Assembly (NCBI GenBank): GCA_032718475.1
Contig: JAUCBJ010007195.1
Location: 29,277 to 93,276, forward strand
From: Nemertoderma westbladi
Taxonomy: Eukaryota > Animalia > Xenacoelomorpha
Reading direction: 5' to 3'
Length of the DNA stretch: 64,000 nucleotides
Below, one piece after another: positions 9,001-46,200 of the stretch; position 1 is the first letter of the stretch; each line of letters begins with the position of its first letter. The translations under genes were made by a program, and so were the position numbers. Below the pieces are notes generated by a model, which was not told where the DNA came from, ran no database searches, and saw only the letters and a list, made by a program, of their open reading frames with translations.

Positions 9001-12000
9001 CCTTAATTCTAACTATAACACACAAACTAACCTTAATTCTAACTATAACACACAAACTAACCTTAATTCTAACTATAACACACAAACTAACCTTAATTCT
9101 AACTATAACACACAAACTAACCTTAATTCTAACTATAACACACAAACTAACCTTAATTCTAACTATAACACACAAACTAACCTTAATTCTAACTATAACA
9201 CACAAACTAACCTTAATTCTAACTATAACACACAAACTAACCTTAATTCTAACTATAACACACAAACTAACCTTAACTCTAACTATAACACACAAACTAA
9301 CCTTAATTCTAACTATAACACACAAACTAACCTTACTCTAACTATAACACACAAACTAACCTTAATTCTAACTATAACACACAAACTAACCTTACTCTAA
9401 CTATAACACACAAACTAACCTTAATTCTAACTATAACACACAAACTAACCTTTACTCTAACTATAACACACAAACTAACCTTACTTCTAACTATAACACA
9501 CAAACTAACCTTAATTCTAACTATAACACACAAACTAACCTTAATTCTAACTATAACACACAAACTAACCTTAATTCTAACTATAACACACAAACTAACC
9601 TTAATTCTAACTATAACACACAAACTAACCTTTACTCTAACTATAACACACAAACTAACCTTAATTCTAACTATAACACACAAACTAACCTTTACTCTAA
9701 CTATAACACACAAACTAACCTTTACTCTAACTATAACACACAAACTAACCTTTACTCTAACTATAACACACAAACTAACCTTAATTCTAACTATAACACA
9801 CAAACTAACCTTTACTCTAACTATAACACACAAACTAACCTTTACTCTAACTATAACACACAAACTAACCTTAATTCTAACTATAACACACAAACTAACC
9901 TTTACTCTAACTATAACACACAAACTAACCTTACTTCTAACTATAACACACAAACTAACCTTAATTCTAACTATAACACACAAACTAACCTTAATTCTAA
10001 CTATAACACACAAACTAACCTTAATTCTAACTATAACACACAAACTAACCTTAATTCTAACTATAACACACAAACTAACCTTTACTCTAACTATAACACA
10101 CAAACTAACCTTTACTCTAACTATAACACACAAACTAACCTTAATTCTAACTATAACACACAAACTAACCTTAATTCTAACTATAACACACAAACTAACC
10201 TTAATTCTAACTATAACACACAAACTAACCTTAATTCTAACTATAACACACAAACTAACCTTTACTCTAACTATAACACACAAACTAACCTTAACTCTAA
10301 CTATAACACACAAACTAACCTTTACTCTAACTATAACACACAAACTAACCTTAACTCTAACTATAACACACAAACTAACCTTTACTCTAACTATAACACA
10401 CAAACTAACCTTAATTCTAACTATAACACACAAACTAACCTTTACTCTAACTATAACACACAAACTAACCTTTACTCTAACTATAACACACAAACTAACC
10501 TTTACTCTAACTATAACACACAAACTAACCTTAATTCTAACTATAACACACAAACTAACCTTTACTCTAACTATAACACACAAACTAACCTTAATTCTAA
10601 CTATAACACACAAACTAACCTTAATTCTAACTATAACACACAAACTAACCTTTACTCTAACTATAACACACAAACTAACCTTTACTCTAACTATAACACA
10701 CAAACTAACCTTAATTCTAACTATAACACACAAACTAACCTTAATTCTAACTATAACACACAAACTAACCTTTACTCTAACTATAACACACAAACTAACC
10801 TTAATTCTAACTATAACACACAAACTAACCTTAATTCTAACTATAACACACAAACTAACCTTTACTCTAACTATAACACACAAACTAACCTTAATTCTAA
10901 CTATAACACACAAACTAACCTTAATTCTAACTATAACACACAAACTAACCTTTACTCTAACTATAACACACAAACTAACCTTTACTCTAACTATAACACA
11001 CAAACTAACCTTTACTCTAACTATAACACACAAACTAACCTTTACTCTAACTATAACACACAAACTAACCTTTACTCTAACTATAACACACAAACTAACC
11101 TTAATTCTAACTATAACACACAAACTAACCTTAATTCTAACTATAACACACAAACTAACCTTTACTCTAACTATAACACACAAACTAACCTTTACTCTAA
11201 CTATAACACACAAACTAACCTTTACTCTAACTATAACACACAAACTAACCTTTACTCTAACTATAACACACAAACTAACCTTAATTCTAACTATAACACA
11301 CAAACTAACCTTTACTCTGACTATAACACACAAACTAACCTTTACTCTGACTATAACACACAAACTAACCTTTACTCTAACTATAACACACAAACTAACC
11401 TTTACTCTAACTATAACACACAAACTAACCTTTACTCTAACTATAACACACAAACTAACCTTAATTCTAACTATAACACACAAACTAACCTTTACTCTGA
11501 CTATAACACACAAACTAACCTTAATTCTAACTATAACACACAAACTAACCTTAATTCTAACTATAACACACAAACTAACCTTTACTCTAACTATAACACA
11601 CAAACTAACCTTTACTCTAACTATAACACACAAACTAACCTTTACTCTAACTATAACACACAAACTAACCTTTACTCTGACTATAACACACAAACTAACC
11701 TTTACTCTAACTATAACACACAAACTAACCTTTACTCTAACTATAACACACAAACTAACCTTAATTCTAACTATAACACACAAACTAACCTTAATTCTAA
11801 CTATAACACACAAACTAACCTTTACTCTAACTATAACACACAAACTAACCTTTACTCTGACTATAACAAACAAACTAACCTTTACTCTAACTATAACACA
11901 CAAACTAACCTTTACTCTAACTATAACACACAAACTAACCTTTACTCTGACTATAACACACAAACTAACCTTTACTCTAACTATAACACACAAACTAACC

Positions 12001-22277: not shown

Positions 22278-25200
22278 CTATTGTAATTAAATACGTATCA
22301 CGTCTTATTATAATACTACTCGGAATGTTGAAATTAAGAAACTTAATTTCATGTGGTCAAAAACATAACAAAGGGATCATAAAAGCTCGAATAAGTTTTT
22401 GAGTTTATTTTTTCACTTTTTCCATTATGGTAAAGGAGCGGGTTACAGTGCAGTCAGTACTATTTAACCAAAACAATAGACTAATTTCCCTTTATAATGT
22501 GTATTCACTCTCCTCTTGAGACCTTTTATATCTTCATGAGCAACACCAACAACCCTCTCTCTCCCTGCACTGCAAATTATGTTATGAATGATTGTATGGT
22601 AGATGCTATGACATTGTATGAGACATGAGACAGGGTATGAGACATGATATGAGACATTGGATTAACACTTGGTAATTAAAGTGAATCCGTGTTTTTTTAC
22701 CAAATTCCGGATTAAGTAAACATATGAATCCGTGTTTTAGTTTTACACTTCATCCAGTGTTGAGCTTAATATATGAATGCGTGATTAAACACCGCTCCGG
22801 ATCTTAAACATAAATACACCCAGTTTCGGATTCAGTAGATTTAGTGTATCAGTATCACTATGCAGGGCTCCACGGATTACACCTAGTAATAGTGTATCAG
22901 TATCACTATGCAGGGCTCCACGGATTACACCTAGTAATAGTGTATCAGTATCACTATGCAGGGCTCCACGGATTACACCTAATCAGTATCACTATGCAGG
23001 GCTCCACGGATTACACCTAATAATAGTGTATCAGTATCACTATGCAAAATCTAGAAAAAAATCGCCTCCGCTTTGCAGGACATTGCATTCGCCGTGAGAA
23101 CCAGCCAGTGCATAATCTTGCACTTTGGCAGCCTCATGGAGTGAATAAGCATGGTGGACAGCCCATGACTTTCTTGAGACGCATCTTAAAGGACACCGGC
23201 CTTAAAGATGCGGATGATCTAGCAAATGTCATGGGTGATAGGGAGTTGTGGCGGTGCAATTTTGTTGACAAGCCGGCACAGCATTCTTAAAAATGCAGCT
23301 GCAATGCAGCATGCCGATCCTAGATCATTATGCAGGGATCCACGGATTACACCTAGTAATGTAAATTCTATCGAGTTCCATAGGAACAATAATAAATGAT
23401 AGTATGCAGATCCCGATCCGCGTTATTTACCATCCTTTCAAATATTTTTATCAATAATTTTTATCAAATATTATCATTGTTAAATTTGAATATAAAATTA
23501 ATATGAACTCCACATACTATACAAAACATACTATTAATATAATTATAAAATATCAGTTGCTTACAAATTTAGCGAATATATAATTATAATAATTGCACTT
23601 ATTAATTATTATTATTATTATTAGTAATTAAATATTTCATAAACGAAAAATAACGTAAAATAGAAAGAAAACTAACACCATAAGACCATACTGAAAAACA
23701 CTGACCAGGGATAATTTACCAACCTGACCGATAAAAGTTTATGGTGGTGAAAAAGAATGTACCTCGCTGGTAGAACCATGGATCGCTGGTAGAACCATGG
23801 ATCGCTGGTAGAACCATGGATCGCTGGTAGAACCATGGATCGCTGGTAGAACCATGGATCGCTGGTAGAACCATGGATCGCTGGTAGAACCATGGATCGC
23901 TGGTAGAACCATGGATCGCTGGTACAATATTATTTACCAACGTTGGTTAATTAGTATAGTTAACTATCAAATATTTATACAATTGCGAATTAATTAATAA
24001 AATTATTAAGTATAAATGATTAATTAAATATAAATAGCCTTTACTATAAACAATACAGATAAAAAGGTATAGAAATAAAGTTACTTGGTATAAATAGAAA
24101 AGTTGCAAAAAAATAGTAACGCCTTTCAAATAAACTTGAAGCACAAAAGTTTAATTAGTAAAAACAAATTAAATGTAGAAAACGTGTTCAATGGAGTTTT
24201 ACATGTAAATAAAATAAAATTATATAAAATAAACAGCGGAAAGTTATTGCAAGGTAGAGGAGGAGTCGGTTTCCTCGCTGGGTGTTAGACTAAAGGGGAG
24301 TTGGTAATGGGAGTTAGCAACGAGACTGGAGACATGGATGGGGCCGTACGGGGACTTCTGGGACAGACTCACTTGTTGTTTGGCGGCGCACTGAAGCAGG
24401 AAGTTGAACGTAAGGGCGGCCGACATGCGGGAGTTCCTAGAAGGTTGACAGAACTCGGAGAACAGCGTCGGAACGGCGGAGCGCAACGAGGAACGGATGT
24501 TGGAATCGGCGAGAACTTTAGCGTGGCGGTAGAACTTCGGGTCGAAGGAACTGGAGGTGGAGAAACGCGACCGACTCGATAACATAGACGACTGCTGGAC
24601 GGAGGAGTCGGACTCGCGTTGCTCAGCAACCAGACTAGGTCTACCCATCTCTATATCGGGGACCTGGGGGACCGAGGTATCTGTAACCATGGCAACCTCT
24701 GATATATCCCGGAAGTATTCCGTCCCCGGAACAATGCCGGAAGTGCCGGTCACCGAATCCTGGAGGGACTCCCGGAGCTGGCCCAACATCCCCTCCACCG
24801 CCGGGCCCAAAGTGTCCGACTTCTCGGACAACCCGGACACCCGTCTGTCCGACTCGGCGAGCGAGGCGTCCGGGACGATGTGGCCGCTGCGCTGCGGCTC
24901 GACGGACGTCTCTAGCGAGCGGAAGGGCTCCGGGAGCGACAGATCCGCGGTGCGGTTCCGTTCGGTAGGGGGTGCTGGACCCAGCGGCAGGGTCGCTGTC
25001 CCTGGGACGCCCGGTCGACGGCCCCACAGCCGTCCGTGCAGCTCCCCGGAGAGCCCCGGCAGTCGGCGACTTGGGCCCCCCATATCGATCCTCCCGGACT
25101 CTCGGAGTCCCACGGCCGTGTCGTCCACGAATATGTCGCTGGGATGCCAACATATTCCCTCAGAGTGGCCGATGTTAAACTTAAGCGTGGCGACAGGCAG

Positions 25201-28200
25201 GGAAATGACGTTGTCTACGCGGAGCTTCCGCTTACGGGGCCTAGGCGGGCCGACCGCTGGGGCGGCCTGGGGAGCTAACCCGTCGGTTTGGGGAGCTAAC
25301 CCGTCGGGTTGGGGAGCTAACCCGTCGGGTTGGGGAGCTAACCCGTCGGGTTGGGGAGCTAACCCGTCGGGTTGGGGAGCTAACCCGTCGTGTTGGGGAC
25401 CTAACCCATCACCTTGGGGACCTAACCCATCGGGTTGGGGAGCTAACCCGTCGGGTTGAGGGGCTAACCCGTCGGGTTGAGGAGCTAACCCATGGGGACC
25501 CATCTCCCCTTGCCCAGGCACATCGGTATCCATAACGACGGGTACGGACTGCTCAACCCCTCCTTCCAGTACAACCGGCCCCTCCCCGGAGACCGCTGTG
25601 AGTCTTGCAGACTCGTTGGCGCCGCGAGAAAGACCCAACGAGCCAGCCAACCCGCGGGGCCCCTCTACGGCGACGTCGGACTCCGAAGTGGCTCCCGGCG
25701 TCGCCAACCGCTTGCGTTTACCGTCGCCGGGGGGGCCGGAGTCTGGGGGGATGGGCCGCTTCCGTCTGCCGGGTTCCCTGGTGGGTGGTCCCTCGGGAAC
25801 CACTCCTGGGGGGCCCTCGTCGGGAACCGGTGCCCCCTCCGTACGGCGGCCCCCTTCCCCCTCCCTACGGCCCCCTTCCCCCTCCATACGGCCCCCTTCC
25901 CCCTCCCTACGGCCCCCTTCCCCCTCCTTACGGCCCCCTTCCCCCTCCTTACTGCCCCCTTCCCCTACCTTACCGCCCCCCTTCCACCCCTCCACCACCG
26001 AATCCCTACTAACCATCTCCTCGTACCCAAACGATGCCAACTGCTGGAGGAACTGTTCCTCTCGTTCCGCAAACGACAGATGTTCGTCGCCGAAGGTCTC
26101 GGGCCCGAACACTGACTCGGGGGCGAGGGCCGGTGGTTCCAGCAGGGTGATGCTCCGTATATCCTGCACGACAGTGCGGTCCGCGGCGTCCGGGCGGGGT
26201 ATCAGCGCGGGTCCGAGGTCCGGAAACCCATCCCCGGAGCCCCGGAGCTGCCGACTCACCTCCCGCAGGAACGGGTCGTTATCCGCGTCGAACAGCATCC
26301 CGAAGGCCGCCTCCAACTCGATGTGGTCGTCCGGTATGTTTATACAATGGCCGCCACCCAACGCATCCGCGTTCAGGTTGACCAGCTGTTGGTCCCGTCT
26401 GGCCGATGTTATCGAGACCATGCGATAAACTCCCTTGCGAGCCTTCAAAGCGTCTTCGTGAAGACGAATCATCTGGTATTCGTAAACCCGAACGATCCCG
26501 CCGTATAGAATAGCAGCTAATCGCAACGACATTTTCCCCTTCGGGCTTAAATTCCCTCTGCTTAACTCCACGTGAATACCCTGGAGGTATTTCAGAACTT
26601 CCACGCAGGAAGTAGAAATGGAACTTTTCAAGAAATTACGAAATATATTCGGTTGTTTGTTCTGAGCCTCTTTGTATGTCAACCGGTGGATTCCGGCGTA
26701 CCAAAATATACCCAGGGGGGTGTGCAACGAACATATCTTATTCTCCCAAAACATTACGTAACTGATCGTATGGCAGTATGGTGAACACAACGCAAAAGTT
26801 TTAACACAAAAATATTAAAGATTAAACAACAAAAACAAATAAACACAAACCAAATAACGTTAACTAAAAAAACTCTAAAGAAAATAACCTATTTAATTCA
26901 AAATTTAACTAGGCCTACCGTAAACCCTTTGATCCAACTCTTAAAATAAAACAGGAGGAAATCCCGATATCGTGTCTGGCCGGGCAAATTGATGGATGCA
27001 AGAAAGTTTCAGTTATGAGTTAAATACATAGGCCAAAGATTACCGGTAGGCCTAGGCCTACCGGTATGCTTGTCCAGATGTCGTTAATAAAGTGAAAGGT
27101 TACATGGATGATAAACGCTTGGATAGAAACAAAACAATAAACAAAAGTCAATAGGTATAGGCCTACTTACATCATGAAGAATCAGGATAAATCTATCGGT
27201 GCCGGTAGCGTCATACTGGCAAATTTAAACAACGAAACGAACGTCTGATAGTTGGAAACTGATAGTAAATTGATAGGTGAATTGTTACCGGTAGCGGTAG
27301 GGCAAGAGGAGCCAGTCGCCATGCGGTACGGGAACGGTAGGCTAGAGTGGATTCGGTAGAATGCCGCATGAGGGGAAATGTGACGACAGATGTTCATGAC
27401 ATAACATAGTAGAAAGATTAAAGTAAAGGGTATTATAGAAAGTAACGTTGAACGATAAATTTAATTCCTTCTTGAGTAAACTCTACAGCGTCAGGCGGTA
27501 GTCCGCCGAATATGAAGCTATTAAGTACGTACTGCCGGTGCCGGTGCGGGGTCTTAAATTATTGCCCATCAAGTAGACATCCCTCATCCTTTCCGCTTCA
27601 TCATATTGTGCGACTCTAATCTCTCTTCACAAAGTTAAATTAGATGTGGTGGAAATAAACTGACCCGCCCTAACCGTAAACTTTATTCTCATCGACAATC
27701 AGTGCGTGCGGCTGTCTCTGCTCAGTCGGAGGGTTGTCTAGTTGGTCATGTAGAAAACTTATGAGTCTAGGTTTCTGAGATCAGCTGACAGCTGATCTCA
27801 TCGTTTACGAAATTTTACCACATTGCCTGCATTACCATTAAGTAAATTATAAGTTTTATACTGTTTTATACTAGGATGCTAGGCGTTGCACGCGGTAGCA
27901 TCTTATGGCCAAAACCTAGCTCTACCCTACAGACCCGAAGGATGACTCACTTGATGGCCTTAGCTATCGTAGAAAAGATCTACCTGTGATTGATCGCGGC
28001 CAACTGGTTGTTGAGAGGAAAGAGGGAGGTTAACCCATGAGATTCCTGAAACCTCCAGTCCAGTACAAGAAGATAATGCAATGGCTGGTCGCACCAAGGA
28101 CAACGAGTATAGTAAATGTTTTGGGTGATTTTGGTAGAAAATTTTATTGTGATCAATAATCCAAATGATAACCGACTTGAATAATTGAGGATTTTGTATA

Positions 28201-31200
28201 AATTGAAATTAAAAAATTGACACCAGCAACTGTTAAGGCAATTCTTCCGATTGCTTCCATATATTATTATACTGTAGTAATTAATTTTCTGTTGAAAATG
28301 ATTACAATTAAACTTACATAACCGGAATCCCCATCTTTATGGCACACTTTTATGACCATTTCATTTCAGTGACACCTCACATATATTTGCTGGAGACGAT
28401 TGTTTGAAATGTAGTTATTGAATGTTTTGGTTGGAAGTATAATTTAATACACACATTGCAATTGTGGAAAGTGTTCGCGGTATTTCAACTTTCCATAACG
28501 CGAGTTGAATATTTTTGTATTTTATTAAAATTGATTATTCCGATATTACTACTGGGTGCGGGACCATGGGTTTTGGGCACATTCAATAAACTGGGGGCGA
28601 TTTATGGGCGAACTTTGGGGCAACTTACAGGGTACGGGAATAATTTCATAGTTATAAGGGCCAGGGGGGATGGAAAATGCAAGCAGTATTCAGGTTAGCC
28701 TGAGTACTATTAGGCCCTGGCCAACTTCCTGCTGCCTGTAGGGGTGGATTTGGTAATGTGCCAGGCCTAAAGGACAAGGACTGCCCTTAGCGGTCCCTGG
28801 CCAACGGCAGCTACTACGAGCCTGAAAAGGACTCGGAACGCTGACTGCTTGTGTCAGGGATTTGCGACGGGCACCGACGGCCCCTTAGTAGCCAAGCCGT
28901 TCTGGGTCTCGATGATCGAACCCCGGGGTTCGTGAGGGGTGGAGTGGACACGCGAACAGGTGGCCAACTTAAGACTGCCCCCTGACCTAAGCCGTACTGG
29001 TTCTCGATGACCGATCCCTTCGGGGTTCGTGAGGGGTGGGACGGACATGCGAAAGGGCTGGCCACAGGACTGGTTTGACAAGGACTGCCCTTAGCGGTCT
29101 CGGGTCAACTGCGGCTACTACGAGCCTGAAAAGGACTCGGAACGCTGACTGCTTGACTGTGATTTGCGACGGGAACCGACGACAGACCCCTTAGCCAAGC
29201 CGTTCTGGTTCTCGATGATCGTTCCCTTCGGGGTTCGTGAGGGGTGGAACGGACACGCGATGGGGTCGAAAGACAAAGGACTAGACCCGACTAGACTCTA
29301 CTGGCCTACCGACTGTTCGGAGCAGTTTCTCGGCTGCCGAAGCAACTACGAGCCTGAAAAGGACTCGGAAAGCCTAGGTGGTTGGGTTTCTGTGATGAAC
29401 TGACGGACCCCTAGCCAAGCCGTTCTGGTTCTCGATGACCGATCCCTTCCGGGTTCGTGAGGGGTGGAACGGACACGCGAACGGGTCCACCGACACGACA
29501 GACTCCTAGCCAAGCCGTACTGGTTCTCGATGACCGAACCCTTCGGGGTTCGAGAGGGGTGGTACGGATACGCGACAGAGTCTACCGACTGGACCGACCC
29601 TTAGCCAAGCCGTGCTGGTTCTCGATGATCGTTCCCTTCGGGGCTCGTGAGGGGTGGAACGGACACGCGACAGGGTCGACCGACACCGACACTACGGCAC
29701 TAAGACTGGGACTGAGGGAAAATCTGGGGAACATTAGGTAGGCTAAAATTCTGAGCGAACAGCGGGTTATTAAATAATATACCGTAGGGATTTATATTAT
29801 CGTGTATACTTATTGTGAATATTTGGTGTATATTGATTTGGGGAAGCCCAAAATTATTCTTAATCAGGTTTGCAACTATAGGAAGTTACATTAAAGAGTA
29901 TATCCAACTAATGCAGCTTTTCTCAACCGCAAACTTGCATCTTAGAAATATTCCCTCCCCACAATCAATATCCGGTGACTGGCCGGGGCTCGGTGGTCTG
30001 TTAAGTCACGTCTCCAGCATCGGCGTTTTTCCCCTTGGTGTAGGAATAACGGCAACAAAATTAAGAATAATTATATGGTTAATTTTGACCGGGTGTCAAA
30101 ATTAAGAATAATTAACGTGGTTAATTTTGACAGGGTGTCAAAATTAAGAATAATTATCGCGGTCAACTTCAACTGGTGGAAGTTGAGAATCCTTCAATAC
30201 TCTTCAAAAACTCTCTACGTGCTTGCCAGCACCCACTACGAGGAAACTCTGGTATTTGAGTTGAGACAAAGTCGTGGTTTAATTAAACAACAAACTCGAT
30301 CTAACCAACTCGTAGTCGGCAGATCACAATTCGGGAGAGTTGTTAACAGGGAATGGAAGTATCGATCACACCCATTGATATAATTCAAGTTGAGCCAGGA
30401 ATCTGGCACGTCGAAGTTGAGGTACAAGGAACGAACGTTGGACGATTCAGGATTACTGTTCGGGTGGTCCAAGCTGAGTACAATACCTACGAGGAACTGT
30501 TTTACGACATCGCGTATCTCGCCATCGAGGAGGCCTTACAATGACCACAAATAACATATCCGATACCGACGAGATGGATCACCACACAGACTCGGAAGCC
30601 GACGAGGTCCCAAACGTCAAGAACATGACCCGTCGGTTAGGGGCTCTTAAAGGCGGAGTAACCCGAGCGTATCAACGGATGGAGAAACAACTCAAGGGAG
30701 TCAAAACCCCCCTCAATGAGGTACAAACTCAGCTTCAAAGTATCCGAAATATCCTACAGCGGTACGAAAGAATGATACAGGCGTACCAAGAGCTCGTTCC
30801 TCCCACCGATCAGGAAAACTACCCCAAGCTGGAAGAACACGTTGTACATCTAGATGGGTTCCGCAAACAACACCGGAGGACCCTCAGCCTGGTGAGAGGC
30901 TATGAGGAACAGTATTACAAGAGGGCTGAAAGAACAGACGCGGAATCAGTACGATCCTCCAGCATCAGGACAGGAGTACATCACAAGAGAATGGGGTCCA
31001 CCAGAAATCAGCACTCCAGCGCTAGGAGCGAGATATCCGGCTCAGCGCGCAGCTCTCAAGGGGCGCCGCCACTCCGAGACCAACTGAGAGAACGGAAGGC
31101 ATTAGCCCTCAAAGCTCGGATGGAAGATGAGTATATTCAACTGCAAGCCGAGCAAGATGTACTAGCCGCCGAAACACAAAGGCGAGAGGCCGAACAAGCG

Positions 31201-34200
31201 GCCGAACGACAGGCCGAACAACGCGAACAGGAGGCCGAACAACATAGACGAGAGGCCGAACGACAGGCCGAACAACGCAAACAGGAGGCCGAACAACGCA
31301 AACAGGAGGCCGAACAACATAGACGAGAGGCCGAACGGCAGGCCGAACAACATAGAAGAGAGGACGAACGACAGGCCGAACAACGCAAACAGGAGGCCGA
31401 ACAACGCGGACGAGAGGCAGAACGAGAGATCGAACAACGTAAATGGGAAGCGGAAATGCGTAAACAACACGCCGAGGCCCAAGCAATTCTCATCCACAAA
31501 AAGAATGCGGATATTGCAAAACTCGCAGAATACGAAGCCGCACTTATCGAACGAGATATTCAACTCTACGAGGACTGGGAAAGGGATATAGATCAGGAAT
31601 ATGAACCAATTCCGGTACCGGAGTTAGAAAAGTCATTTACACCAACAGCGGCGAAACCTCCGAAACCCGAGATTCCGCCTACCAAACAGTCTACGCTATC
31701 GGCACAAGCCCCGGTGTTCCATCCCCCACCGGCTACGCTAAAGAATGAGGAACCCTATTTCCCATCCAACACCACGACAGCGAGTGTACCCAAGTACGAG
31801 CCTGAAAAGGACTCGGAACGGGACGCCACTCCCCGATCAAACAACCCATTTACATCAACACCACAAACTCGCAGCCGCGTCATTATTAAAACTCCACCTA
31901 CTATTGATCCATCAAGTATGGGAGTGAGTGCCAATAACTATAACCCTCCGAGTCACTCTAGTTCAGACAACGTCAGCATCATCCGGGCGTTGGAGAACCG
32001 CCTTGCCATGCCAAAGATGGAGATTCGCACCTTCGAAGGAGATCCCGTCGATTACCTCAGATTCAAGAAACGGTTCTTTGCGCAGATCGGATCAACGGAC
32101 ATAGCCGACGCACAGAAATTGGTATATTTATCGCAATACCTGGGTGACAAGCCACGCAGAATTGTTGCATGTTTTGAGGGAGGTTCTCATGAGGCATACT
32201 ATGACGCATGGAAAACTCTAGATAAAAGATACGGAAATACCGGAACTATAATTAATAAAACTCTAGAGAAACTGATACAAGACGCGGGATCACTAGGGGA
32301 CCCACAGAACCTCCAGGAATTCTCAGATTCCATGAAGGATGCCTACTACACTCTGAAACCCTTAAATAAGGAGGACCAGGTGAACAACATTCTAAACCTC
32401 CGACAGATCGCCCGGAAGTTCCCCGGATGGCTGCAAAGTAAGTGGGCCTATAAATGCGTAGATCTCCGGCGCAGACATCCAGATCAAGATCCCAGCTTCC
32501 TCGAAATGTCGGCATTCCTGGACGATATCTCCGAAGCCATGAATGACTCGATGTTCTCGAAACAAAGTCTCGCCAAGTTGGACGCAATGGAGAGCAATTA
32601 CCAGAGCAGGGCACCCACTCCAAACCCAAGATTCCGCCCTACTCCTGTGAGTGCGATGGCCATCAGTATGGCTGAGGACTCGGATGACGAGGATTACGAG
32701 GAACCGACCTCAGCAGAAGAATGGGCATGCTACCTAGCGAATTGGGCACCCGAAAGGGAAGGCACCACAGCCTCCCCTATATGTCTCTTCTGTGGGGAGA
32801 AACACAAAGTGGAATTCTGCAGAAAGTTTCAGTTCGCCGAACTCGTCCCACGCTTCGAGGCGATAATGAAACACCGAGGATGCTTCCGGTGTCTTGGAAC
32901 AGGTCACTATGTTCGGGAGTGCGACCAAAGATCATGCTGTACTGTCTGTAACGACCAACGCCATCACACGCTCCTCCATATCCCCGCGAACTTCGATTTT
33001 ACTACCCTCCCCTTTCGGATCGAAGCCAGGCGAAGAGGAGAAACAAACCACATCTTCAAAGGAACCCGGACAACCCAACGGAGAGAAACCAACCCGTTTA
33101 AGATCTCCACCAATACACCACAAGTAACCAATATTTCGGCCACGATTAATCTTATAAATCGCCGCTACATGGTTTTCGCAAAGGTAATCCCAGTGAGGAT
33201 CCAAGGAGTCGGCAAATCTTTGACGACACTCGCGTTCCTCGATAACGGGTCTGACGGAACCATCATCGACCGGGATTTCCTCGAGCAACTCGGCCTAGAA
33301 TATGAACCTTGTAAACGGCCCATACAAACCATCACCGATAACAGAGAGGTAGAGTCTGGGGAGGTGCAACTCCAGATGGAAGGAGTGATGAAGGGCTACG
33401 AAACGGCTAAGTTAACCATAAAGAACGCCTTGGTACACACAGACCTCCGGGTGCGGTTCCGACAATCAGCCGAGTACGCCCCCCTCATACAATTGGACCG
33501 GGACGATGTAGACCTGAGGTGTCCGCAGTTGGACGTAAACCGTATCACCCTACTGATCGGACTTGATACACCGGAACTACACATCCCCACAGGAGATATC
33601 GCCCGATCTATAAACCAGGATGACGGATTTTATGCTGAACGAACAATAATGGGATGGACACTCTGCGGCATTAAGGAGGAAACTACGGACACCTATACCT
33701 ACCTTCCTAAATGTCAGATTAAAGAGAATGTAACCTCTGTGGGTTATTGCTCAGTTTCGGATCTTGACGAGGATTTGTTTCTGGAAACAGAGAAAACCCA
33801 ACGAGAGATGACGAAATATTTTAATTTGGAGACCCAAGAGTTCGCGGAAAAGGACGAAAACCCATCCGAAGAGGACCAATATTGTATGGACGTTCTCGAC
33901 CAGGCCACGTTTAAAGACGGACATTGGCGCGTACCCATGCTTTGGTGGATAATAAGGTTATTGATGATAATAATGATGTTGATAACATTGACACCATTAA
34001 TTGGAGAGCACGGACTAATCTGCCGTAATACCCGGATGGCGAACGCCTCAGTTGAGTCCCTCACTCCTAACCACTTACTGGGGAGACCCAAAACCCACCT
34101 CCTCCCGGAAACCATGTTCCCGGATCCCAACGAGATCGCGAAACATACAAACTGGAAAAAGGCCCAAGCGTTGGCAGCGCATTGGTGGAGGATTTGGGCC

Positions 34201-37200
34201 CAGGAATATCTCATAACCCTCCGGACCAGGAGGAAATGGAACAACACCCACCGGAACGTCGCAGTTGGCGACATGGTACTAGTTAGAGAAGATCTCAAAG
34301 ACCGCGTTCACTGGCCTGTGGCGCGGGTCGTGACCATACACCCAAGCAAAGACGGACTTGCGAGGACTGTGACGATACGAACGAAAGCGGGCCACTACCA
34401 ACGCCCCATCCAGAAGCTGTGCCTTCTTGAAGGCAATGACAGTGGTGATTCTACAAGAGGTGATAAGTTCCCTACGGATCCTGCTGCAGACATTGGTGAC
34501 AATTATAAATGCGTTTAAACCCTTTCTCATCATGTTGACAAACTCTTATTAACTGTGATTTATCGACAATGAGTTATGGACCCCCCTTAAACCAACTGTA
34601 ACCACGCAATGGTATTTGTGTTTCCTCGTGTGTTATGTGGAGTCCAGCATCACCCTGCAGATGTTTCGACTGACGCAGGGTCGTTTATGCATTGTTTACC
34701 CTGATTTTGGTCATCAGGACCTACGATATTGGATTATTGGAAATGGAAAAGATTTGAAGTGGAATTCATTGTATTCATTGCAGTATGTTATGTTGTCCGT
34801 TGCGTGCGCAGTTCGGGGCGTAGGCGGTGTAACGAGTCCAGCTGTAGATCCCGGATTGCCGCGCAACACCCCCTCTATCCCGTTATTCTGGTGGGTCCAT
34901 GGTGCATCCACATGACTTCGACGATAGAGGGTTTTATGTTTCTCAGTCGCGTTATTCTGGTGGGACCGTTGCGTGGATTTTGGGGCGTAGGCGGTGTAAC
35001 GAGTCCAGCTGTAGATCCCAGAATGTTGCGTAACCCCATCCCACATGACTTCGTCGACTGAGCTTTATGTTGTTGGGAGTGTTATTCTGGTGGGTCCCTG
35101 GTGCACCCACGTGACTTCACTCCTAGCGTCTTCATTGTCCGTTACGTGCGCAGTTTGGGGCGTAGGCGGTGTAACGAGTCCAGCTGTAGATCCCAGATTG
35201 CCGCGTAACACCCCTTCCACGACAAAGATTAACCAAAGAAAATGATTCAATATAGTTGGAAATGATGAAAAGGATCAGACAACTCTGCTATAAACCTGAA
35301 TGATGACGCGTATACTGATGAAAATGAAATGATGCGCACCCTGGTGCTGCGCTTATAACAATGATGATAGCCGGGGGGCTATAAACCCAATGATGATGTG
35401 GAAATAAATAAATGTGAAATAAATGGTGGAACTAAATGTGTTGAAATATGTGGAAATAAATGAAATGAGATGAAATAATAATGAAATGAAAAAAGACAAA
35501 AAAAAGGTATAAAAGAGGTCAAAGAAAAGAATTGGAAAAAAAAGGACAAAAAAGTCATAAAAAACTGGTTGGATATTATGTATAGCTATAGTAACTGTAA
35601 ATGCTGAATGTATTAGCAATAAGATGATAGATGCCTATATAGCAATGTTATTGAATAAACTGAATTAAATAAAAAACTGAATTATTCTGCTATCGCTATA
35701 GTTTCAGACTTTCTGGACTTATAATTAACTGAACTAATTTGTAACGGATATAATCGTAAATATGGACCCAAATCGCCAAATTATCGGCGAATTACGTAAC
35801 ACGGTAGATCTACTGGAATATTCGCAACCCGGATCCCCTGACTTTGATACAAATTGGAACATTCTGCTAAATGAGAACGTACGAGAAATTAAATTCACCG
35901 GGCGTGAGGGACCGGATTCTAAGAATCTACGAGCCCTCCGGTTAGCCGATGCTACTACGAGCCTGAAAAGGACTCGGAACGCAAAGGCAACCGGAGGGGA
36001 CGATTCGTCGTTTTGGGAAACGTTCCGGCAGAGCGTCTACAGATCCCGATGTTTGATCTACGACAACGAGGGAAACGCGACGCCCACCTCGAAGGCGATT
36101 ACGTTGGCGAGATGTCAGAGCTTCGTCGACGACAAGAGTACGTACCTCGCCCACTGGGGAAACCTGTCGGAGTGTACGGCGACGCTTCGAGAGGAACGCG
36201 TATCGATTATACAAAACCGCGACGACTACCAGGAAAAGTACGGGGCGAAAGAATACGGTCGATCCTTAGTCGTCGTCCTCGGAACCCTGGACGGTTTGGT
36301 ACTGGTGTGCCGAATATTCCCGACACCCAGACATGAAGTGCAGGCAGCCGGAGCGATCTGGTTGCTGCCTACGGATATCCAAAAGATCCTCTTCGACTTC
36401 GACGTCATTAAAATCGGGTCGGATATCAAGGCGGACGTCCGGAACGATTACGCGAACGCTCCCGCAGGAAGAAACCGACGAAACGACCTCAACGCACTTA
36501 GCCATTGCATCGATACTCAAACGCTGCTAGCCTGGTTACGATTCGCCGAGTTCATGCGAGGATTCCAAGAAGTGAGACCGACGAAATCCGGGATCGGCTA
36601 CCTCGCTGTGCTCAACGGCGGTATCGACTTCAAACCCCAGAAATTCCGGGACTATAATAAAATATACGGCGGATACCCGGGATTAGAGATAAAGAGCGAG
36701 CGAGAGGGTCGATGGAAGGACGTCGATCGGAAGTGGACGATACACCAAAGGTGGGAGAATCCCGATCGACGGAGCTATATCTACGTCGTTATGGAATGCT
36801 ACACCGTCGCTAAGTTTATCTGCAAGACTCTAGATAACCTCATCAAGGCGGTCCCCCTTTCCTTCGTCGACTACGACTGGAACGAGGTTATAAACCACGC
36901 GTTTAAAGCGGTCGAGAACATTACACCGGGAGAATCAAAAACGCCCGCCGTTATCGATTCCTGGGACGAGAGCGGACCTTACGACATCCCTACGATTACC
37001 GAACTTCTCGGTGCGGAGGAGCCTCTGATCTCCTCGGAAGGGGAAGAGATATGGCTAAACGAGGGTGTTCTACTCTCCACCCCGAAGCGACAACTCGAAC
37101 CGGAGGCCGCGTATGGACCGGCCGCCAAACGGGTTGCCTCGGCCGAACCGATAAAGAGAGCAGGCGTCTACACCCCACGCGGCTCCGGTAGCCCCGCGAG

Positions 37201-40200
37201 AGAGGTAGCCACTACGGCTGCATTGAGCGACTTCGGCGACATATGCCAACGGTTATCCCCGTATCCTTTCCCGGGTGGCGAAGATTGGTCGTCGGAGATC
37301 CCGAGTACCAGCCACCAACGGACCCGCTCAGCGATACTGGTCGAGGAGGGACCCAGCGATGCGCCGACACCCGATGATCTCCTCGGTATCCCTACGTCGA
37401 AAACCCCGGCACCTCTTCGCCGACCAGCGGTAGCTACTACACCCGCCGTTCCTCAGGACCCTATGCGACTAACCCGTTGGTACGCCGAGCAAACTGAATG
37501 GATCCACCGCCAGAAACGGTCGTCCGAGTTGAGACCATCGGGACATAAAGAGGGTTATCGGAGCGAAAACATACTACGCAAGAGCCCAGCATTCCGCGGG
37601 CTACCGATCACCGAGAATATTCCGAAGAGCGACCGACGACTCGAATACTACGCCGGCGTTCCGATTCCGATATTCCCCGGTCGGGAGATGCAGTTGGAGG
37701 TATGCGACGACTGCGGTTCGGAGCAGTGCCCACGCAGCAGAAGGAATCGGGTTACCGATTCTTGCCTCCAGCTCCTTGGGATACTCTATTGCCCATACTG
37801 CGCGATATCGGGCCACGACGTTTCGGTCTGTCCGATCCTTTATAACCTCTGCACCAAGTGCGGTTTCCGTGGACATTCCGCTAGCCCCCGCTGCTATATT
37901 AAATGTCCAACCAAAGACGTTACCGCTATGGGCAATATGGTCATGTTTGAGACATACGCAAACAGCCATTTAAAGACCAAGTTTCGGAGAAACGCTCGGA
38001 ATATCGCGCAGGAGATGGCGTGCGGATATTTCTCCTTCCCGGAACGCCTCCACACGTCGGCCTCGCTACCCTTCCATTACGTGGATCTGCTACTGAGCGC
38101 CGGATTATTCGGTCCATTCGAAGTTATTAGACGATTATATTCGTATAAAGAGGAGTTCGGTGACGGAGAATGGTTCCTAGAGGCACGCAACTCCGAGTTG
38201 GAAAGACGAACCGACATGATCCCGATGCCTTCGAAAGGAAGAGCCGCCAGGAGACAAGCCGAAGCGTTACTCACGATGGATGTTGACGCTCCTCTACCAG
38301 CCATAGCGATCGATGAGAGTCGACGGGCGAAGAGACGGAAGGCGTATCAGAAAAAGAAATAGTGGATTGGGATATTCCAGGAACATTTATCGAACATTTA
38401 TTTTTATACAAACTCTAGGCCAAATTAATTAAAACTATGCAATATTAAATTTGGGATTTTTATATTGGGAATGACCTACGCAAACTCAATCGACCGACAG
38501 ACTTCACGAAGGTCATTGGGGGGGACTGTTCGCGGTATTTCAACTTTCCATAACGCGAGTTGAATATTTTTGTATTTTATTAAAATTGATTATTCCGATA
38601 TTACTACTGGGTGCGGGACCATGGGTTTTGGGCACATTCAATAAACTGGGGGCGATTTATGGGCGAACTTTGGGGCAACTTACAGGGTACGGGAATAATT
38701 TCATAGTTATAAGGGCCAGGGGGGATGGAAAATGCAAGCAGTATTCAGGTTAGCCTGAGTACTATTAGGTCCTGGCCAACTTCCTGCTGCCTGTAGGGGT
38801 GGATTTGGTAATGTGCCAGGCCTAAAGGACAAGGACTGCCCTTAGCGGTCCCTGGCCAACGGCAGCTACTACGAGCCTGAAAAGGACTCGGAACGCTGAC
38901 TGCTTGTGTCAGGGATTTGCGACGGGCACCGACGGCCCCTTAGTAGCCAAGCCGTTCTGGGTCTCGATGATCGAACCCCGGGGTTCGTGAGGGGTGGAGC
39001 GGACACGCGAACAGGTGGCCAACTTAAGACTGCCCCCTGACCTAAGCCGTACTGGTTCTCGATGACCGATCCCTTCGGGGTTCGTGAGGGGTGGGACGGA
39101 CATGCGAAAGGGCTGGCCACAGGACTGGTTTGACAAGGACTGCCCTTAGCGGTCTCGGGTCAACTGCGGCTACTACGAGCCTGAAAAGGACTCGGAACGC
39201 TGACTGCTTGACTGTGATTTGCGACGGGAACCGACGACAGACCCCTTAGCCAAGCCGTTCTGGTTCTCGATGATCGTTCCCTTCGGGGTTCGTGAGGGGT
39301 GGAACGGACACGCGATGGGGTCGAAAGACAAAGGACTAGACCCGACTAGACTCTACTGGCCTACCGACTGTTCGGAGCAGTTTCTCGGCTGCCGAAGCAA
39401 CTACGAGCCTGAAAAGGACTCGGAAAGCCTAGGTGGTTGGGTTTCTGTGATGAACTGACGGACCCCTAGCCAAGCCGTTCTGGTTCTCGATGACCGATCC
39501 CTTCCGGGTTCGTGAGGGGTGGAACGGACACGCGAACGGGTCCACCGACACGACAGACTCCTAGCCAAGCCGTACTGGTTCTCGATGACCGAACCCTTCG
39601 GGGTTCGAGAGGGGTGGTACGGATACGCGACAGAGTCTACCGACTGGACCGACCCTTAGCCAAGCCGTGCTGGTTCTCGATGATCGTTCCCTTCGGGGCT
39701 CGTGAGGGGTGGAACGGACACGCGACAGGGTCGACCGACACCGACACTACGGCACTAAGACTGGGACTGAGGGAAAATCTGGGGAACATTAGGTAGGCTA
39801 AAATTCTGAGCGAACAGCGGGTTATTAAATAATATACCGTAGGGATTTATATTATCGTGTATACTTATTGTGAATATTTGGTGTATATTGATTTGGGGAA
39901 GCCCAAAATTATTCTTAATCAGGTTTGCAACTATAGGAAGTTACATTAAAGAGTATATCCAACTAATGCAGCTTTTCTCAACCGCAAACTTGCATCTTAG
40001 AAATATTCCCTCCCCACAATCAATATCCGGTGACTGGCCGGGGCTCGGTGGTCTGTTAAGTCACGTCTCCAGCATCGGCGTTTTTCCCCTTGGTGTAGGA
40101 ATAACGGCAACAGAAAGGTTTTTCAATTATATTAAGATACTGGTACAACTAGGAATTTAAGATTGATATTGATGTAATGGTATGTTATTTAATTAATTTT

Positions 40201-43200
40201 AAAAATTAATTTAACTGTAGAAACCTTCATTAGTGTTACGATAGAGCAAACTTTATCACTTATTGACACCGGGGCCCTCTTCCATTTAGAATTATAGTCA
40301 GTAAAAATGGGGGATCAAAAATCGCATTGTTTTTGAATTTTTAAATTCATGATACGGTAAGAATTGGGCCTCAAAATCCTCAATGATGTCAGTTGGGCGC
40401 TCTCTAGCGCCCATGTGAAGAATACCAGGATTTCCGCCCATGTGAAGAATACCAGGATTTCACTTTTCGGTCGACGGAATTATAATATATGACGATTTTT
40501 TATTTTCTTAAATTAACCTTTATTAAGTGTTTTTTAGCGCTTATTTCTGTCTTATAACCTGTACATATACTAATTCGTTTATTGTTTTGGTTAGATTCAG
40601 CCCTTCTGTAACCTGTGTTTTTAGTGAAAACCTGGTATTCTTCACATGGGGGTAACAGCAAAGTGAAATATAACGGCAGAAAGTCTGGTATTCTTCGCAT
40701 GGGCCCAGTTGGGCATTATTGGTCGGATTATTGCTGACAACCGTACTACATACATACCCAAAGGAGTCGAATATTTGTTTCATACACAGGATTTCTGTTG
40801 CTACTCGAACGACTGCCAGTACAGTGTAACCAAACATTGTTAGTATAGCAGTATAGTGTAACCAATGAAAGAGCTGCCTTCTAATCTGTTTGTTCGGAGG
40901 GAAATTCAAGAGGAATTTAGAAACACCAAAAATGTGTTTTAACTCAGTCTGTTCTGGGTGTCAGTTGTCTGGTTGACAGGGTGTTGATGGGGATGCCTGG
41001 TGGTTTTTATATTGCTCTTTGGTCGTGGACTTACTTATCTTGGTACCGGTAGCGGACATCTATACTAAGAAAAAAAGCGAGGATTTCATGTCCTCTTACT
41101 AGGGCATTCCTATGTTTGTGTTAGTAGAGACCCACATTTTTGATAGCGTGCTGAGCTGATGCAATTAGTCTGCCACTCTGCCAGCAGCTTTACATGTGGT
41201 GTGGTTTGCAGTTGGCGTGGTAATGTCACGATTGTGTTTTTGGTGAGTGGAAGGGGAAGTAGTACCGTCAATATGAAATGGGAAGTAGAATAGGCATAAA
41301 TCACATTCATAATATATGATAAACCAGTTGCGAAGTACCGGCAGTAGCAGTCCGGTGCGGTAGGCAGGTACCGTATGTGGGTATGTAGTTCAAGAACATG
41401 ATATGCTCACTCGTTTAATTGACCGGTATAATTAATGGATTTCATAGCTGATCTCTTTATAAAATATCGAAGAAAACGCGACTATCTAGAAGACAAGTGT
41501 TCCTCGTCCATTAACTCTTTGTACTCAAAGATAATTCCAGAGGATTCCGATAACATAGGAGAGATATATCGGCACCATACATCCCGTGCGATACAATATT
41601 TAAACCCTTCCTGGGCACAGGAAACAGTTCCCCGACCAACTATTACAAACATAAGTGAGCAGTTAAGTCGAGCTAAACAGACCCGCGTATATGAGACGGC
41701 AACCCAACCCCAATTCATTACGGGATTCCTCAGCGTTTTCTTCCTCACATATTACAAGAAACATTTTCGCGTCCAAACCTTTGCGAGTTTCGGGACGGGC
41801 GTGGCGTTAGGAGCCGTGTTTTACTCAAAGATCATCGTTCGGTCGTACGAGCGGGTCACGTCTTACATAACATTTGGTAACCTGGGAATGGGACCCGATG
41901 ATTACAGGGACGCCTGGAGATACGCAAAGAAAGTAAGAAGTGGAACGCAATAATAAAAATCAGTGAATAAAATATAATTTTTATTTGTAATTATTCGAAA
42001 TAATCGGAGATATTTTTCGCTCGCTCGCTGTAACTTACGTAATAATGTTAAGGAGATTTGTTTTCCCTGTTAGAACTAAACCGATTCGTCATAAATTCAG
42101 TAACTTTAGTAATATAACCGGCCTTTCGACCCAAACTCGTGGTGTTAGTCGTTTTATACCTTTGAAGATTCAATTTCTCGGTGCAGTAGGAAAATTATCC
42201 TTTTCAACCGGTACAAACAAAACCGGAAGTAAGGCGGACAATGCATCCACTCCAGACCCGGACGATGCATCCACCCCAGAACCGGAGGATAACACTGACA
42301 CGGCCGATGACTTTACCGATGATCGCGAGGTTGATGACGATGGAACTATTTACCGGAACCCGACCGGCAACCAGCCCTGGTGGCATCCGTGGCGCAGCGC
42401 CCGCTGGAAGGATTCCGAATGGCCGGAAGATAAACTCCGGCCCCCGGACGCCGAGTTCGACCGACTGCAGGACACCTACACGGAGCTGAACGAGGGAAGC
42501 TGGACGTCCACGGACCCGTTCGACTACAGATGGTTCCAGGAAACGATGAAGAAAGATAAGGTGAGATAGTTGGAGAGAAGTGAGATGGGGTGGTCTGGTC
42601 TGGTCTCGTTGTTTCATAACTTGGTACCGGTAATGAATGTAGTGGAAGTGATTGACACAAATATAATTATCCATCTACTAATAGCCCCTACAAATATTTT
42701 CATATTTTTTGAAATCTGATAATTAAAATTATTAATTGTGCGTGCTGCGTATTAATGTGCGTATTAATACGTCCTGTTATGTACCACCACTCCCTTAGGC
42801 TCACTACAAGTTCTTGATACTACATGCCTATATTAAATGTCCCATTAATAGTATATGTATCTTCTCCATTAGGTTGTTATATTTATAAAAGGAACCCCCA
42901 GCCATCCCCTATGTCGCTTCTCCCATGCCCTTGTCAACGTAATGGACCTACACGGAGTGCCTTATAAGAGTTACGATGTTCTATCTGATTATAAACTCCT
43001 CGAGGGAATTAAACGATATTCTATGTGGCCAACCACTCCAATGGTGAGTCAGATAGGGAGGGAGGTGGGGTGGGTGGCAGATAGGGCGGGAGGTGGGTGG
43101 CAGATAGGGAGGGAGGTGGGTGGCAGATAGGGCGGGAGGTGGGTGGCGGATAGGGAGGGAGGTGGGTGGCGGATAGGGAGGGAGGTGGGTGGCGGATAGG

Positions 43201-46200
43201 GAGGGAGGTGGGTGGCAGATAGGGAGGGAGGTGGGTGGCAGATAGGGAGGGAGGTGGGTGGCAGATAGGGAGGGAGGTGGGTGGCAGATGGGAGGGAGGT
43301 GGGTGGCAGATAGGGCGGGAGGTGGGTGGCAGATAGGGAGGGAGGTGGGTGGCAGATAGGGCGGGAGGTGGGTGGCGGATAGGGAAGGAGGTGGGTGGCG
43401 GATAGGGAGGGAGGTGGGTGGCGGATAGGGAGGGAGGTGGGTGGCAGATAGGGAGGGAGGTGGGTGGCGGATAGGGAGGGAGGTGGGTGGCGGATAGGGA
43501 GGGAGGTGGGTGGCGGATAGGGAGGGAGGTGGGTGGCAGATAGGGAGGAGGTGGGTGGCAGATAGGGAGGGAGGTGGGTGGCAGATGGGGAGGGAGGTGG
43601 GTGGCAGATAGGGATGGAGGTGGGTGGCAGATAGGGATGGAGGTGGGTGGCAGATGGGGAGGGAGGTGGGTGGCAGATAGGGAGGGAGGTGGGTGGCAGA
43701 TAGGGAGGGAGGTGGGTGGCGGATAGGGAGGGAGGTGGGTGGCAGATAGGGAGGGAGGTGGGTGGCAGATAGGGAGGGAGGTGGGTGGCGGATAGGGAGG
43801 GAGGTGGGTGGCAGATAGGGATGGAGGTGGGTGGCAGATAGGGATGGAGGTGGGTGGCAGATAGGGAGGGAGGTGGGTGGCAGATAGGGAGGGAGGTGGG
43901 TGGCAGATAGGGATGGAGGTGGGTGGCAGATAGGGAGGGAGGTGGGTGGCAGATGGGGAGGGAGGTGGGTGGCAGATGGGGAGGGAGGTGGGTGGCAGAT
44001 AGGGAGGGAGGTGGGTGGCAGATAGGGAGGGAGGTGGGTGGCGGATAGGGAGGGAGGTGGGTGGCGGATAGGGATGGAGGTGGGTTGCAGATAGGGAGGG
44101 AGGTGGGTGGCAGATAGGGAGGGAGGTGGGTGGCGGATAGGGAGGGAGGTGGGTGGCAGATAGGGAGGGAGGTGGGTGGCAGATAGGGAGGGAGGTGGGT
44201 GGCGGATAGGGAGGGAGGTGGGTGGCAGATAGGGATGGAGGTGGGTGGCAGATAGGGATGGAGGTGGGTGGCAGATAGGGAGGGAGGTGGGTGGCAGATA
44301 GGGAGGGAGGTGGGTGGCGGATAGGGAGGGAGGTGGGTGGCAGATAGGGATGGAGGTGGGTGGCAGATAGGGAGGGAGGTGGGTGGCAGATGGGGAGGGA
44401 GGTGGGTGGCAGATAGGGAGGGAGGTGGGTGGCAGATAGGGAGGGAGGTGGGTGGCGGATAGGGAGGGAGGTGGGTGGCAGATAGGGAGGGAGGTGGGTG
44501 GCGGATAGGGAGGGAGGTGGGTGGCAGATAGGGATGGAGGTGGGTGGCAGATAGGGAGGGAGGTGGGTGGCAGATGGGGAGGGAGGTGGGTGGCAGATGG
44601 GGAGGGAGGTGGGTGGCAGATAGGGAGGGAGGTGGGTGGCAGATAGGGAGGGAGGTGGGTGGCAGATAGGGAGGGAGGTGGGTGGCGGATAGGGAGGGAG
44701 GTGGGTGGCGGATAGGGATGGAGGTGGGTTGCAGATAGGGAGGGAGGTGGGTGGCAGATAGGGAGGGAGGTGGGTGGCGGATAGGGAGGGAGGTGGGTGG
44801 CAGATAGGGAGGGAGGTGGGTGGCGGATAGGGAGGGAGGTGGGTGGCAGATAGGAATGGAGGTGGGTGGCAGATAGGGATGGAGATGGGTGGCAGATAGG
44901 GAGGGAGGTTGGTGGCAGATAGGGAGGGAGGTGGGTGGCAGATAGGGAGGGATGTGGGTGGCAGATAGGGATGGAGGTGGGTGGCAGATAGGGAGGGAGG
45001 TGGGTGGCAGATAGGGAGGGAGGTGGGTGGCGGATAGGGAGGGAGGTGGGTGGCGGATAGGGAGGGAGGTGGGTGGCGGATAGGGAGGGAGGTGGGTGGC
45101 GGATAGGGAGGGAGGTGGGTGGCAGATAGGGATGGAGGTGGGTGGCAGATAGGGAGGGAGGTGGGTGGCAGATAGGGAGGGAGGTGGGTGGCAGATAGGG
45201 AGGGAGGTGGGTGGCGGATAGGGAGGGAGGTGGGTGGCAGATAGGGAGGGAGGTGGGTGGCAGATAGGGAGGGAGGTGGGTGGCAGATAGGGAGGGAGGT
45301 GGGTGGCAGATAGGGAGGGAGGTGGGTGGCAGATAGGGAGGGAGGTGGGTGGCAGATAGGGAGGGAGTTGGGTGGCAGATAGGGAGGGAGGTGGGTGGCA
45401 GATAGGGAGGGAGGTGGGTGGCGGATAGGGAGGGAGGTGGGTGGCAGATAGGGAGGGAGGTGGGTGGCAGATAGGGAGGGAGGTGGGTGGCAGATAGGGA
45501 GGGAGGTGGGTGGCAGATAGGGAGGGAGGTGGGTGGCGGATAGGGAGGGAGGTGGGTGGCGGATAGGGAGGGAGGTGGGTGGCAGATAGGGAGGGAGGTG
45601 GGGGCAGATAGGGAGGGAGGTGGGTGGCAGATAGGGAGGGAGGTGGGTGGCAGATAGGGATGGAGGTGGGTGGCAGATAGGGAGGGAGGTGGGTGGCAGA
45701 TAGGGAGGGAGTTGGGTGGCAGATAGGGAGGGAGGTGGGTGGCAGATAGGGATGGAGGTGGGTGGCAGATAGGGAGGGAGGTGGGTGGCAGATAGGGAGG
45801 GAGGTTGGTGGCAGATAGGGAGGGAGGTGGGTGGCGGATAGGGAGGGAGGTGGGTGGCAGATAGGGAGGGAGGTGGGTGGCGGATAGGGAGGGAGGTGGG
45901 TGGCGGATAGGGAGGGAGGTGGGTGGCAGATAGGGAGGGAGGTGGGTGGCAGATAGGGAGGGAGGTGGGTGGCAGATAGGGAGGGAGGTGGGTGGCAGAT
46001 AGGGAGGGAGGTGGGTGGCAGATAGGGAGGGAGGTGGGTGGCAGATAGGGAGGGAGGTGGGTGGCAGATAGGGATGGAGGTGGGTGGCAGATAGGGAGGG
46101 AGGTGGGTGGCAGATAGGGATGGAGGTGGGTGACAGATAGGAATGGAGGTGGGTGGCAGATAGGGATGGATGTGGGTGGCAGATAGGGATGGAGGTGGGT

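Follow-up and report, generated by a model that had tools for sequence, protein, structure and literature searches.

We examined a window of 64,000 nucleotides from Nemertoderma westbladi (GCA_032718475.1, contig JAUCBJ010007195.1, positions 29,277 to 93,276 of the forward strand). Positions 28472 to 40112 of the window are a young, non-autonomous long terminal repeat (LTR) retrotransposon of the BEL/Pao group, which carries an invariant 24-nt sequence, predicted to fold as a hairpin and here called module A, in its LTRs and in both of its open reading frames (ORFs). This feature is real, and it is probably a selected RNA structure that binds protein. The 24-mer has exactly eight exact matches in the whole window, all on the + strand (28815, 29119, 29347, 31795, 35956, 38870, 39174 and 39402), with three copies per LTR, one in gag and one in ORF2. 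No further matches with up to 3 mismatches were found in the window and none in 100 shuffles. The 3' LTR copies duplicate those of the 5' LTR and therefore five copies are independent:

28815..28838, + strand: module A copy 1, with GAAA tetraloop, bulged A and loop-E-type loop; folding z-score (z) -4.76 on the + strand and -1.39 on the - strand
29119..29142, + strand: module A copy 2, a tandem duplicate of copy 1; 30/40 flank positions common to both
29347..29370, + strand: module A copy 3; folding z -3.27
31795..31818, + strand: module A gag copy, located upstream of DUF1759 in a linker rich in Pro/Ser/Thr; the extrahelical base is G and the outer stem modest
35956..35979, + strand: module A ORF2 copy, at the tip of a long copy-specific stem (~35926-36009), in the N-terminal extension before the exonuclease-like domain; folding z -5.94

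An earlier note on this DNA had described the 24-mer as identical in the LTR, gag and ORF2, with three more copies in the 3' LTR, and had placed the two coding copies in different reading frames. The count bears out the first statement and the translations the second. In gag the 24-mer is translated as YEPEKDSE (residue 419, counted from the ATG at 30541) and in ORF2 as TSLKRTRN (residue 65, counted from the ATG at 35762, ~190 nt past the start codon), while its third frame contains a stop. The linkers that hold these two copies are outside the conserved domains. The shared length needs a correction: 24 nt are common to all copies, but the ORF2 copy matches LTR copies 1 and 2 over 32 nt. A covariance model of module A found the eight copies in the window and one additional weak match at 37426-37492 (E 0.082).

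Predicted fold of the hairpin and three further modules

The hairpin fold, the internal loop and the copy-specific closing stems of the earlier note all appear as described in the fold predictions. In 17 of 20 context folds, each of the seven core pairs is predicted with a probability of at least 0.98. The exceptions are the copy at 29119, where all seven pairs have 0.79-0.80 with 30-nt flanks and 0.96-0.98 with 60-nt flanks, and the gag copy, where the outermost core pair has 0.34 with 60-nt flanks. Between the copy-specific stem and the 7-bp core there is a predicted internal loop of 5 x 4 nt. In the sarcin-ricin domain, the S-strand with its extrahelical base is combined with a U-A handle, a sheared pair at the top and a variable pair at the bottom, and in potato spindle tuber viroid (PSTVd), within its central conserved region, the extrahelical base is C (PMC6633198). 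Judged by sequence and predicted fold, all five module A copies follow this layout: between their helices A-N-U-A faces G-A-A, with a C-G pair closing above and a variable bottom pair. The loop thus fits the sarcin-ricin/loop-E motif of ribosomal RNA that the earlier note had named, but the extrahelical base is G in one copy only (gag) and the viroid-type C in four of the five. Unlike in the known motifs, the cap is a 7-bp bulged stem with a GAAA loop rather than a direct tetraloop, the motif is dispersed over a retroelement, and its geometry is predicted.

Besides module A, the element contains three repeated module types which follow the same design of an invariant loop on variable stems:

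28888..29670 (28888, 28983, 29191, 29411, 29506, 29601), + strand: module B, six copies; kink-turn (k-turn)-like loop with GAU bulge and tandem GA/AG
34815..35194 (34815, 34982, 35157), + strand: module C, three copies; invariant 38-nt core on long stems
34882..35118 (34882, 34951, 35081), + strand: module D, three copies; internal-loop motif with copy-specific outer stems

These modules, including six k-turn-like hairpins per LTR, are new here, as are a Tf1-like candidate self-priming site and the family identity of ORF2; all were absent from the earlier note. In the k-turn consensus, two helices are separated by a 3-nt bulge and, after it, G-A and A-G pairs (PMC3884654). Module B is predicted to adopt this geometry: a k-turn descriptor, derived from the copies themselves, matches 6/6 of them and has 0 matches in 20 shuffles. 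Four of the six copies carry a cUUCGg cap. Copy 1 (28888-28960) has a second AGUA/GAA loop at its base, of which the remaining copies keep a part only. Modules C and D are located between ORF1 and ORF2, with the second copy of module C enclosed by the second copy of module D. Each module D copy (3/3) has its best pairing between its own flanks. Module C at 34815-34852 contains a weak 7-nt complement to the 3' arm of module A, matched by 80 of 2000 shuffles. Rfam covariance models gave no match to modules A-D (28000-40500, E up to 5), and resemblances of module A to lambda boxB or the U6 stem-loop and of module B to the selenocysteine insertion sequence (SECIS) are unsupported by Rfam.

Selection on the hairpin compared with copying

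All 24 core columns are invariant, compared with 4 of the 40 flank columns (Fisher p 8e-14, with borders set after the fact). Pairwise flank identity is 10-20/40 for all pairs except the tandem pair, which has 30/40. In the closing helix 3 of 4 pairs are altered on both sides and 94.5% of the cells are paired; its covariation score was reached by 1 of 500 shuffles, a control which according to the tool's own warning is not a probability. The 25-nt flanks of the ORF2 copy pair with each other at -32.3 kcal/mol, a value that none of the 2461 other ORF2 positions reaches. Folding is unusually stable in windows centred on module A but not in fixed 120-nt windows across the LTR array, which have ordinary folding energies (z from -1.5 to +1.7). 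The 32 nt shared between the ORF2 copy and LTR copies 1 and 2 mean that copying did happen; after it, the flanks diverged and the module A core stayed unchanged. The invariant core, the variable flanks and the covariation of the closing stem together favour selection on RNA structure over recent copying, which upholds the view of the earlier note that the constraint acts on the nucleic acid; most likely it acts on RNA structure. The full invariance of the paired bases suggests that the hairpin is read in a sequence-specific manner.

Several results count against selection on RNA structure. There are only five independent module A copies, and since the seven core pairs never vary the core provides no covariation support. 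The own flanks pair best in only 3/5 copies. The outer stem of the gag copy is weak, being matched by 156 of 3858 positions at 15 nt and by 1138 of 3838 at 25 nt, and for both in-ORF copies the minus strand folds about equally (z -5.29 and -2.43). Of the other modules, the stem covariation of module B was reached by 236 of 500 shuffles, its copies being too alike, and the swap test of module C was weak, with the own flanks best in 2/3 copies.

The element, its candidate self-primer and ORF2

The following features make up the remainder of the element:

28472..40112, + strand: non-autonomous BEL/Pao LTR retrotransposon, flanked at both ends by the 5-bp target duplication GAAAG
28472..30057, + strand: 5' LTR, 1586 bp, TG...CA
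29852..29864, + strand: candidate self-primer, whose 13 nt complement the primer-binding site; putative transcript 5' end
30060..30072, + strand: candidate self-priming primer-binding site, 2 nt past the LTR; repeated at 30101 and 30143
30541..34518, + strand: ORF1, with gag (DUF1759, zinc knuckle), aspartic protease and an in-frame fusion to DUF5641
35702..35707, + strand: candidate splice acceptor for ORF2
35762..38362, + strand: ORF2, 866 aa, with DEDDy exonuclease-like domain, linker and Cys/His zinc-knuckle cluster
38518..38525, + strand: polypurine tract preceding the 3' LTR
38527..40112, + strand: 3' LTR, TG...CA, putative 3' untranslated region (UTR); module A at 38870, 39174 and 39402 and six module B copies (~38943-39725)

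The assignment to BEL/Pao follows from the TG...CA LTR pair, the target-site duplication and the polypurine tract together with the Pfam matches of ORF1 to the DUF1759 gag (E 4.6e-15), the aspartic protease (E 6.5e-5, just under the curated cut-off) and DUF5641 (E 1e-28). The two LTRs differ at 2 of 1586 sites (28715 and 28945 in the 5' LTR). Reverse transcriptase (RT) and Peptidase_A17, which an autonomous BEL/Pao element would have, gave no Pfam match in ORF1, and the element was presumably moved by a helper. Around 33940-34040 of ORF1 the frame stays open over the lost pol core via a short filler of hydrophobic codons, and in gag a 21/33-nt repeat array (31143-31475) encodes an E/R/Q/A-rich, coiled-coil-like stretch. 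In the AT-rich spacer at 35230-35700 the word ATGATGA occurs four times, CTGA twice, AATAAA five times and TATA several times. The spacer has a weak Rfam match to C/D small nucleolar RNA (snoRNA) (E 0.81); its possible identities are a poly(A) site, an internal promoter and a C/D-like RNA.

Self-priming of reverse transcription is predicted for this element from its sequence. Positions 30060-30072 are the exact complement of 29852-29864, and no TGG primer-type start is present within 5 nt of the LTR end. Among 8442 internal positions, the only complements of at least 12 nt to the LTR are the 30060 site and its two repeats; the 13-mer is present in triplicate at 30058-30160, within a 42-nt duplicated hairpin region. 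When 29848-30100 is folded, the predicted pairing probability of the self-primer is 0.79-0.98, and with 100 extra bases it is 0.54-0.67. Self-priming elements have been recognised by an LTR complement of at least 10 bp starting 0-5 bp after the LTR (PMC6317226), and here the complement is 13 bp at offset 2. The arrangement is comparable to that of Tf1 and Sushi, and in Tf1 the primer is made up of the RNA's initial 11 bases, i.e. its 5' end (PMC7175516). Unlike in these elements the site is triplicated, and the self-priming lineages named in the available parts of these two sources are Ty3/gypsy and some Ty1/copia, not BEL/Pao. By analogy with Tf1, transcription would start near 29852. The arrays would then be part of U3 and be read only in the 3' UTR and not in the leader, and a full-length RNA would carry five module A copies (gag, ORF2 and three in the 3' UTR).

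ORF2 itself has no Pfam match, and word-index searches with it found no relatives. An exhaustive search detected 7 proteins with 29-34% identity, which have the N-terminal domain and the Cys/His cluster in common with ORF2. The profile of this family matches TbRND (E 2.7e-6), EXD2 (E 1.1e-4) and Egalitarian (E 1.1e-3), and ORF2 also points to a Werner-like cluster (0.91, a lead only). Judged by these matches, ORF2 belongs to a DEDDy-exonuclease and zinc-knuckle family resembling TbRND, EXD2 and Egalitarian. TbRND shares the layout of exonuclease and zinc knuckle; unlike ORF2, all three are host proteins, and the similarity is weak. Egalitarian has a motor-linking role, and PDB titles describe it bound to localisation stem-loops. 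The motif I D-x-E is found in 5 of 7 aligned relatives and is absent or degenerate in ORF2 (in a gappy alignment). Without the motif I stretch the ORF2 product is likely not a nuclease, which would suit a protein that only binds. A zinc-containing DEDDy ORF3, described as of unknown function, is known in LTR elements of bdelloids (PMC5408684). In contrast to this ORF3 of the Ty3/gypsy-like Juno and Vesta elements, ORF2 is located in a BEL/Pao element, has a separate C-terminal zinc-knuckle cluster and lacks motif I; the part of that source available mentions no RNA arrays in Juno and Vesta, in contrast to the module arrays here.

Loci with ORF2 relatives were collected with a 4-sequence alignment, alignment A1 being too divergent for the locus search, and five of the 46 candidates were analysed (L001-L005). 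BEL/Pao genes upstream of the ORF2 relative are confirmed by Pfam in two of the five (L004 and L005). In L003 the tested ORFs have no Pfam match, and L001 and L002 show no retroelement context. The ORF2 family is carried by other BEL/Pao elements as well. L005 has a TGG-type primer site and no self-primer. In L004 a pyrimidine tract ending in CAG lies ahead of the ORF2-related ORF, parallel to the candidate acceptor at 35702..35707. In L001, direct and inverted repeats of ~100 nt (8070-8484 and 10567-11182) flank the ORF2 relative, with no gag or pol shown nearby, and this relative may belong to another element type. The relative in L002 (P0003, 79-2022) has two copies of the zinc cluster. Descriptor scans of the five loci gave three loop-E and one k-turn match, scattered and near shuffle level. 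A degenerate pattern of the module A 24-mer had 0 matches in the metagenome, viral and prokaryotic collections. Four gag relatives were found (21-25% identity), too distant for DNA comparison.

Outside the element, a single-ORF Rad21/Rec8-like kleisin gene with an internal repeat (24247-26814, - strand; Pfam E 7.6e-6) lies 1.7 kb from the insertion. Long runs of extreme strand skew at 1-22000, 43000-47000 and 52000-64000 are probably tandem repeats. No transfer RNA genes were found in the 64,000-nt window.

Proposed docking of an RNA-binding protein and other explanations

We tentatively propose that one RNA-binding protein, most likely the product of ORF2, docks at the dispersed copies of module A and that this docking would serve RNA export and transport to the assembly site; among the functions considered this is the one we prefer. 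Once docked, the protein would take the RNA from the nucleus and on to the site of particle assembly. As the element has no RT, its RNA would have to meet helper enzymes in trans, and extra copies of such a handle would thereby be rewarded. The ORF2 product is put forward as reader because of its kinship to Egalitarian and because element-encoded export proteins have a precedent in CERV of the C. elegans element Cer1 (PMC10309623). As for CERV, human immunodeficiency virus Rev with its Rev response element (RRE) and the constitutive transport element (CTE) of Mason-Pfizer monkey virus, the proposal involves an element-encoded protein or a structured RNA in the export of genomic RNA (PMC10309623). 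In contrast to these systems, the signal consists of many identical small hairpins and not of one large element. With copies in both ORFs and in the 3' UTR, the spliced RNA would be tagged as well as the unspliced one, a pattern that suits export or transport more than packaging of the genome only; the choice among export, transport and packaging is one that we infer.

Other results speak against docking by the ORF2 product. The structure model of ORF2 has low confidence (predicted local distance difference test, pLDDT, 44.8; 30.5 for a single-sequence fold), and a Foldseek search with the model gave no match at E 0.001 or better, with EXD2 ranked top below significance. The module A covariance model had 0 matches in the five loci with ORF2 relatives. 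None of these loci has comparable repeat arrays, L005 being the only one with an LTR pair to inspect. The protein family therefore does not travel with the hairpin, and the arrays are no general trait of elements that carry ORF2. The missing arrays in distant relatives count against an ancient pairing of ORF2 and hairpin, not against a pairing specific to this family.

In a packaging role, module A would be a dispersed signal for the Gag zinc knuckles of the element or its helper, multiplied owing to the competition for particles that a non-autonomous element faces. Such a role seems unlikely to us, even though Gag is intact with its zinc knuckle and GNRA hairpins are established nucleocapsid sites in retroviruses. 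Scattered sites may also contribute to packaging in Ty elements (PMC4974528). If the ORF2 RNA is spliced, however, four of the five copies would be on the spliced RNA too, and modules C and D, in the putative intron, would be better candidates for a genome-only signal. The modules may alternatively recruit stabilising or shielding proteins of the host, with 15.5K/L7Ae-family proteins binding the k-turns and RPL5 or another loop-E reader binding module A. We consider this doubtful as the main explanation, and it is compatible with docking of the ORF2 product, not exclusive. All six module B copies fit the k-turn consensus by the descriptor taken from them, RPL5 binds the PSTVd loop with the same extrahelical C (PMC6633198), and ORF2 relatives occur without module A; but proteins that read loop E and k-turns recognise shape, which would not fix all 24 bases including the stem.

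Control of translation by the hairpins, from a long structured 5' leader starting near 28683 and within the ORFs, is improbable. A TATA-like stretch at ~28652, just ahead of the GC-rich array (59% GC, 28690-29720), keeps this model alive, and the ORF2 copy is located shortly after the start codon. The earlier note had considered such translational control, which is weakened by the candidate self-primer: the long LTR complements are limited to the three repeats after the LTR and point to a transcript start near 29852, downstream of the LTR arrays, as the RNA 5' end is the primer in Tf1, and ATTAAA follows at 29890. We give equally little credit to a neutral or DNA-level origin, in which the copies of a U3 enhancer word arose through recent template switching or gene conversion and form a hairpin only incidentally. 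Tandem repeats are common in U3 (PMC3601003), the 32-nt match of the ORF2 copy shows copying and the fixed windows fold in no unusual way; yet the identity ends at the loop edges, diverged flanks still pair with their own partners, and the GNRA, UUCG, loop-E and k-turn motifs all lie on the sense strand. Loop-E-type loops are also part of the hairpin ribozyme (PMC8403530), but that the modules form a self-cleaving ribozyme, as in retrozyme LTRs, is highly improbable, since an Rfam scan of 28000-40500 with E up to 5 detected none and its lone match was the weak C/D snoRNA elsewhere.

Going beyond docking of the ORF2 product, and quite unlikely as a whole, the family may have an RNA-transport system of its own, in which an Egalitarian/RNase D-like zinc-knuckle reader derived from a nuclease would sit on loop-E hairpins, the k-turns would recruit a host snoRNP-type protein and reverse transcription would be self-primed. 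If true, this system would be an analogue of Rev/RRE built from wholly different parts. Each part has a precedent. In our searches of the open-access literature we found no report of the combination, nor of an LTR element with arrays of k-turns or loop-E motifs, nor of a BEL/Pao element that primes itself, which is limited evidence for novelty.

The RNA signals that act in cis in LTR retrotransposons are poorly characterised, those of Ty1 and Ty3 included (PMC4974528). This element marks its own signals through repetition and so provides four small RNAs open to direct testing, together with a candidate partner. With the candidate self-priming site, BEL/Pao would join the self-priming groups, and the docking proposal would suggest what the so far unexplained DEDDy extra ORFs of retroelements, here extended to BEL/Pao, might do.

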